Positions 52,521 to 53,170 of a stretch of 64,000 bases of DNA are shown here, piece after piece. The notes beneath the pieces were generated by a model. It did not search any database. It had not been told where the DNA came from and was given only the letters and a program-made list of their open reading frames with translations. The stretch lies in the sequence record PV464738.1. One strand, 5' to 3'. Source of the DNA: Escherichia phage RCIP0319. Position 1 is the stretch's first letter. Each line of letters begins with the position of its first letter. The translations under genes and the position numbers were made by a program.

Positions 52521-52840
52521 AAACTCTTCACTTGCATGCGCAATCGCTTGCATCTAAGTTCGGATTCATGGACGGTGACATCGTGTCACTTTTCTGTGAA
52601 GAAAATAATATTGAATCAGAATTAAAAGATAAGGACTCGCACGACGTTTTAATCAAACTAGTAAGGAAGCACCTTTTGCCTTTGGTAAGTCATGTTAAGG
52701 TATTTGAAATATTAACGATGCACAACCCGATACGCTGTGAAGATGACTTCATTGATGAGATGTATCACAGCGATGTTCAAGTTGAAGTGGGCCTTGAAGA
52801 AGTGTTACAGTGCATTAAAGAAACGGAGAAATTCGAATGA
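52517..52840 (+). CDS. small acidic protein
   Basis: 107 aa; acidic. Confidence 0.3.
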   Translation: MKTLHLHAQSLASKFGFMDGDIVSLFCEENNIESELKDKDSHDVLIKLVRKHLLPLVSHVKVFEILTMHNPIRCEDDFIDEMYHSDVQVEVGLEEVLQCIKETEKFE

Positions 52841-53170
52841 AATTGAAATGGTACGTGGACCCTGGACCCTGAGCCAACAGGCCAATACAGGTCATTCCAA
52901 CGTCGCGGCTGGCCGACTTGTTACAGCGGCAATCCAGATAAAGAAGACTGCGAGCTGCTTGCCGCTATCGTAAGTCTCGACCATCACGGCTATGAAGGCC
53001 ACTACGCGAGAGCAACCAACCTTCGGCTTAAGGTGCGCATCCATTTCAAGGTCGCAGGCGAGGACCGCACCGGACTCTCCAAGGAAGAGTTCAGCAGCAT
53101 CGCCGACGCAAAGGAATGGCTCAAGGCTTTCTATAAGAACAACCCTAAATTCTATCCAACTAAGGAATAA
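52837..53170 (+). pseudogene. small early gene frameshifted by a 7-bp tandem duplication
   Basis: ATG 52837 overlaps upstream stop (ATGA) but hits a stop after 11 codons; a 108-codon frame lacking any ATG continues to 53170; deleting one GGACCCT copy (52857-52870) gives one 109-codon ORF. Confidence 0.45.
52857..52870. repeat. tandem 7-bp duplication GGACCCT GGACCCT
   Basis: Two adjacent identical heptamers inside the frameshifted gene. Confidence 0.85.

Follow-up and report, generated by a model that had tools for sequence, protein, structure and literature searches.

The DNA analysed here (hereafter the window) is a stretch of 64,000 nucleotides from Escherichia phage RCIP0319 (sequence record PV464738.1). 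By its sequence, it is assigned to Wifcevirus as a WFC/WFH/ECML-117-like E. coli myovirus; members of this group are E. coli/Shigella myoviruses with genomes of 66-72 kb (PMC11990801). The left 25 kb of the window shares 96-98% identity with WFH, CWP003, ECML-117 and others, while its right third is a mosaic of small genes on the + strand. The gene of interest sits there, among short + strand genes that form a translationally coupled block, and its immediate surroundings hold the following features:

52517..52840, + strand: upstream gene, 107 aa, whose TGA (52838-40) overlaps the ATG at 52837-39 (ATGA)
52825..52828, + strand: Shine-Dalgarno sequence GGAG, 8 nt 5' of ATG 52837, as read from the sequence
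52837..52872, + strand: truncated frame with the genuine start, 11 codons (MKLKWYVDPGP), ending at TGA 52870-72
52856..52871, + strand: tandem duplication TGGACCC TGGACCC TG, equivalent to GGACCCT x2 at 52857-63 and 52864-70
52864..52873, + strand: shifty stop GGA_CCC_TGA_G, a product of the duplication
52871..53170, + strand: rest of the gene, E10 to E108 plus TAA, in the +1 frame; 98% identity to homologs by tblastn
53173..53577, + strand: downstream gene, 134 aa, phrog_444 (unknown function), arranged as in AV128/WFC

The ATGA overlap of the upstream gene with the 52837 frame is indicative of translational coupling, and in our alignment GGAG precedes the ATG at identical spacing in all Wifcevirus homologs. 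The product of the upstream gene itself has a weak match to phrog_22475. From 52837, the zero frame reads ATG AAA TTG AAA TGG TAC GTG GAC CCT GGA CCC TGA, and residues 1-9 of the peptide it encodes are identical to the conserved N-terminus of all homologs. Tandem Repeats Finder reports TGGACCC x2.3 at 52856-52871 with a 100% match; the 7 bp duplicated are an exact copy of the adjacent bases, their number is not divisible by 3, and the zero frame meets its stop after 11 codons. The +1 frame, in turn, meets no stop between 52847 and the TAA at 53168-70. Its earliest canonical start is GTG 53033, from which only the C-terminal 45 residues would be made, and no start codon for re-initiation was found in the sequence after TGA 52870-72. 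When one heptamer copy is removed, an ORF of 327 nt results, encoding 108 aa plus stop. The earlier note on this DNA had described the short ATG frame in its ATGA overlap, a protein-like frame lacking an ATG and running on to 53170, and a single gene restored by deletion of one heptamer; its coordinates are correct, and the restored gene corresponds to the state of all homologs.

The junction at 52861-52865 additionally creates a CCTGG site (CCWGG, Dcm/EcoRII) where the single-copy sequence reads CCTGA, which is probably irrelevant.

The small gene and its orthologs

The repaired protein matches phrog_14973 (unknown function) with E=1.3e-33, residues 2-106 aligning to positions 5-108 of the 114 in the profile. 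Among 11 aligned homologs, K2, K4, W5, P11, T12, G13, Y15, F18, R21, G22, W23 and P24 are invariant, and these residues span the break. The phrog_14973-type family has 522 representatives, and homolog P0001, which is 96% identical, has a confident AF2 model (pLDDT 83). Orthologs from Wifcevirus and Nonagvirus (e.g. JenP2 gp66) carry the same N-terminal motif, K-x-K-W...P-T-G-x-Y-x-x-F-x-x-R-G-W-P, all of them in a single frame, whereas the coding sequence in this genome is split over two. Synonymous and nonsynonymous codon differences of the repaired ORF stand at 7:1 against WFH and 5:1 against Mansfield. On these comparisons, 52837-53170 is judged to be a real conserved gene, here divided between two frames, that is under purifying selection with no secondary decay.

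To place the heptamer in context, the gene was compared across the 29 INPHARED records that carry it. All 29 have one heptamer copy and an intact ORF of 108-110 codons from the same ATG; in every one, either query bases 1-330 align to 322-323 bases or bases 1-334 align to 327, leaving the record 7-8 bases short of the query. Explicit alignment of Ro157lw, FEC19, WFH, AV128, WFC, Mansfield, Bas98, EC150, JenP2 and BRET (n=10) gives the same picture of a single copy and an intact ORF. Ro157lw and FEC19 also possess the upstream 107-aa gene, and in both the gene following it is annotated as an intact 110-codon gene with one heptamer and the same ATG; at the other end of the range, JenP2 and BRET, which are distantly related siphoviruses of Nonagvirus (~76% DNA identity), again have exactly one copy. 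The repaired ORF is equal in length to the orthologs of AV128/WFC, which have the window's downstream gene. Outside INPHARED, the heptamer is single-copy in 3 IMG/VR contigs and one Logan contig, and the two-copy junction has 0 matches in IMG/VR, JGI metagenome contigs and GTDB genomes. Heptamer copy number therefore varies in 0 of >30 relatives drawn from two genera, and the duplication is, by these alignments, private to this one genome. The reading of this locus as a real gene put out of frame by a 7-bp tandem duplication is thus upheld: homologs were searched for the two-copy sequence with a short product, and all proved to be single-copy and intact.

Perfect 7-bp x2 arrays are not in themselves unusual in the window, where 6 occur and order-1 Markov simulations predict 3.9 +/- 1.9; taken alone, the repeat is not beyond chance expectation. 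Its meaning lies in the comparison: the inserted bases are missing from every homolog, and the repeat splits a conserved protein.

The gene does not occur throughout the genus. Since no phrog_14973 homolog was found in the entire ECML-117 genome, the gene is accessory; Bas100, too, is without the region that carries it. The neighbouring genes have distributions of their own, so that the locus is mosaic. Among L001-L004 and L006, the set compared, the 107-aa upstream gene is common only to the window, Ro157lw and FEC19, the window has the 134-aa downstream gene, and the broken gene in its 108-aa form, in common with AV128 and WFC, and WFH-type genomes have neither neighbour. Separately, two homologs from Logan assemblies (P0006 and P0007) end in an unrelated, longer C-terminus (…HGLKTSTRRTLNTIHLRRSDANNKQFTFI) that resembles a frameshifted reading of the normal one; such 3'-end breaks are consistent with either a dispensable gene or assembly errors.

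Repeats and indels elsewhere in the window

Indels were listed for the window against the whole genomes of WFH and ECML-117, together with partial loci of other relatives. One of those that break a gene is the following:

18690-18944: perfect tandem repeat, 127 bp x2.0, 100% match in Tandem Repeats Finder

The 127-bp unit is single-copy in WFH and ECML-117. In the window, the repeat leaves the gene for a 912-aa virion structural protein (phrog_4797/phrog_587) as two ORFs, 17804-18838 and 18852-20669, while it is intact in these two relatives; a frameshift in it would probably be lethal. The number 127 is the maximum k-mer of SPAdes, and contig end overlaps of 127 bp are a documented SPAdes artefact (PMC5923482). 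The repeat agrees with that artefact in its exact length, its perfect identity, its absence from relatives and the conserved gene it breaks. Hence, it is most likely the untrimmed overlap of a circular SPAdes contig, left inside the sequence after rotation.

The same artefact offers no explanation for the 7-bp duplication, which corresponds to no assembler parameter in size and to no junction in position. The earlier note had suggested a shared cause for this duplication and a second small one in the window; against WFH and ECML-117, the only other private duplication that disrupts a gene is the 127-bp repeat, and, since 127 bp is the SPAdes maximum k and a technical origin is most likely for it, the two most likely differ in cause, if this repeat is the one that the note had in mind; a shared cause is not supported. 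Few differences are private to the window. Besides the 7-bp duplication and the 127-bp repeat, they comprise the gain of an 18-bp unit at 2235, a single intergenic base at ~36665 and minor intergenic changes within the terminal-repeat region. Apart from the 7-bp duplication and the 127-bp repeat, no private coding frameshift was found in the indel listing against relatives, and in other respects the quality of the record is high.

Several further features came to light in these comparisons. WFH carries eight single-base indels relative to both the window and ECML-117 (at window positions 5949-7064, 38258 and 42268). The 5949-7064 segment matches WFH (MK373776.1) at ~20900-22050, where the WFH annotation is broken up into short CDSs separated by gaps, against contiguous genes in ECML-117. 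Because ECML-117 agrees with the window, these indels are ascribed to the WFH record, probably as errors or as its peculiarities.

Other short tandem arrays are present as well. The 18-bp unit gain belongs to an in-frame repeat of CAGAAGGTGAAGAGACTC at 2228-2278, inside the 469-aa ORF 1447-2856; it has 2.8 copies in the window, one unit more than in either WFH or ECML-117. A 9-bp array, GCGCCATTC x2.3 at 57487-57507, lies in the terminal-repeat region and is 9 bases longer than in WFH, ECML-117 and WFC; it would be in frame if ORF 57267-57635 is real. Another 9-bp unit, TACGGATGA, forms tandem arrays of 2-3 units each at 1118-1139, 1235-1261, 1317-1337 and 55140-55161, on both strands and in two intergenic regions. 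Its 18-mer, allowing up to 2 mismatches, has 5 matches in the window and 0 in 100 shuffles. The first cluster is 5' of the gene at 1447 (469 aa); the second immediately precedes the point that corresponds to the left genome end of WFH. These arrays look like putative binding sites for a regulator or for a packaging/replication protein.

Origin of the duplication

Textbooks explain duplications of this type by slipped-strand mispairing at a microhomology during replication, and short-tandem-duplication frameshifts arising in this manner include the classic rII and lysozyme mutants of phage T4. The ancestral sequence of the small gene reads ...TAC G|TG GAC CC|TG AGC..., with a TG dinucleotide on both sides of the 7-base unit. 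Replication slippage between these flanking TGs would then have duplicated TGGACCC in tandem after codon 9, although a microhomology of two bases is weak evidence of slippage. The consequences for translation follow directly from the sequence: ribosomes initiate normally at the well-placed ATG 52837 and terminate after 11 codons at TGA 52870-72, with the remaining 99 codons stranded in the +1 frame and lacking an initiation signal of their own. Because these 99 codons have no start in their frame, the duplicated allele is either a strong hypomorph or a null. It is a recent lesion, as the downstream frame is otherwise undamaged and its differences from the nearest orthologs are mostly synonymous, and it is tolerated since the gene is dispensable, being missing altogether in some members of the genus.

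The allele shares with Streisinger-type frameshifts the exact tandem copy, a length that is not a multiple of 3, the flanking TG microhomology, the early stop and the reversibility by loss of a copy. The T4 mutants of this type were selected in the laboratory, whereas the allele described here is natural, private and found in a sequenced isolate; otherwise there is no substantial difference between them. Polymerase slippage is thus the best explanation for the 7-bp event, and an engineered origin, which the earlier note had also entertained, is not supported. We consider it likely, with a probability of roughly 0.77, that a recent, private, slipped-strand tandem duplication has turned a dispensable small gene into a null or strong hypomorph, possibly leaky at the CCC_UGA that it created.

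Two other accounts of the second heptamer have to be weighed against this one. The phage DNA might carry a single heptamer, with the second copy introduced by assembly, polishing, manual rotation or editing, or taken from a minority variant. The record that contains it also holds, uncorrected, the 127-bp repeat that breaks the 912-aa gene, and the presence of such an uncurated overlap shows that broken genes were not screened for in this record; furthermore, the two-copy allele was seen nowhere else in the collections searched. However, a De Bruijn-graph assembly of Illumina reads would not be expected to make a 7-bp tandem duplication lacking read support, and the site is no homopolymer and lies away from the contig end, the rotation point and the terminal-repeat boundary (18817 for the repeat junction, ~55211 for the point to which the left end of WFH maps). 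The remaining window, moreover, shows no comparable private damage to its coding frames. Given that the 127-bp repeat points to Illumina/SPAdes data, the 7-bp duplication would need support from reads, which makes a real event likelier, if unproven. We infer that both copies are present in the phage DNA itself, beyond the record, and regard an artefact as unlikely.

Alternatively, the heptamer could act as a phase-variable (contingency) switch, its copy number toggling the gene on and off by slippage, as the earlier note had also put forward. The length of the unit and its location near the 5' end of the ORF would suit such a switch, and slippage, having produced a tandem duplication, can also undo it. 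Against this, the array has 2.3 copies only, all relatives in both genera carry a single copy, never three or more, and that copy is unremarkable coding sequence whose residues are conserved. With no variation in copy number among these relatives, the notion of a switch is not borne out, and we give it the smallest chance of all the explanations considered here.

The CCC_UGA stop and the meaning of the allele

At the new stop, the sequence GGA_CCC_UGA_G places a shift-prone codon in the P site and a stop in the A site, with tRNA re-pairing available in the +1 frame. CCC_UGA has been described as 'especially +1 shift-prone' in E. coli, with frameshifting generally <=2%; it reaches 15% at pheL, where it is incidental, and is undetectable at the CCC_UGA of pdxH, while Listeria phage major tail genes and some antizymes make use of such a site (Gurvich et al., PMC3082878). 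At the site described here, peptidyl-tRNA-Pro would slip +1, from CCC to CCU, and translation would continue in the conserved frame (GAG CCA ACA...). This would yield the complete protein, lengthened by an inserted Gly-Pro (VDP-GP-EPTGQY), and the point of insertion is a variable position in the family alignment. A small fraction of ribosomes, typically <=2%, may thus produce full-length protein and render the allele leaky; with a Gly codon in the E site and a nascent chain of 11 residues, the efficiency here could be near zero. The tryptic peptide expected from the trans-frame product is WYVDPGPEPTGQYR.

One might go further and propose that this +1 frameshift is programmed or otherwise utilised, such that the two-copy state would be a functional recoded allele that lowers dosage, as in prfB-like cases or Listeria-phage tail genes. 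The post-slip frame is exactly that of the conserved protein, with only Gly-Pro added at a variable position, and the site has the P-site/A-site hexanucleotide of pheL, the Listeria phage tail genes and the antizymes, followed here as well by a meaningful continuation in the +1 frame. In prfB, the stimulatory element is an upstream SD-like sequence; at our locus, no such stimulator (GGAGG/AGGAG) was found in 52845-52866, and the local RNA is no better folded than shuffled sequence (z = 0.33). Furthermore, the shifty stop is absent from all orthologs compared, every one of which is single-frame. Unlike the known CCC_UGA sites, therefore, this one is a mutational by-product in one genome, unconserved and with no stimulator detected. 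Termination at a Pro-stop pair is slow, which would favour slippage, but frameshifting at such sites is often incidental (PMC3082878). A utilised frameshift is accordingly judged to be very unlikely. We are slightly more doubtful still of a related proposal, namely that the two-copy allele is a selected knock-down, in which a 110-aa early protein was costly on the isolation host and the phage escaped by way of a new +1 recoding site that turned the gene down rather than off and that slippage could reverse. Were it true, the locus would show a recoding site at its birth, the cost of the protein lying, for example, in its acting as a trigger of host defence; a real selected knock-down would indicate a host-dependent cost of the protein, and nothing here shows that.

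Taken together, our comparisons favour an ordinary, private loss-of-function allele of an accessory gene, possibly leaky, whose value lies mainly in annotation and quality control. The locus should be labelled a phrog_14973-family (pseudo)gene with a frameshift, rather than as an 11-codon ORF and an orphan frame, and the 127-bp assembly overlap needs to be taken out of the record. The allele also provides a natural construct for gauging the leakage of a bare CCC_UGA in a phage early transcript, and it adds one data point in favour of this widespread small gene not being needed for phage propagation.
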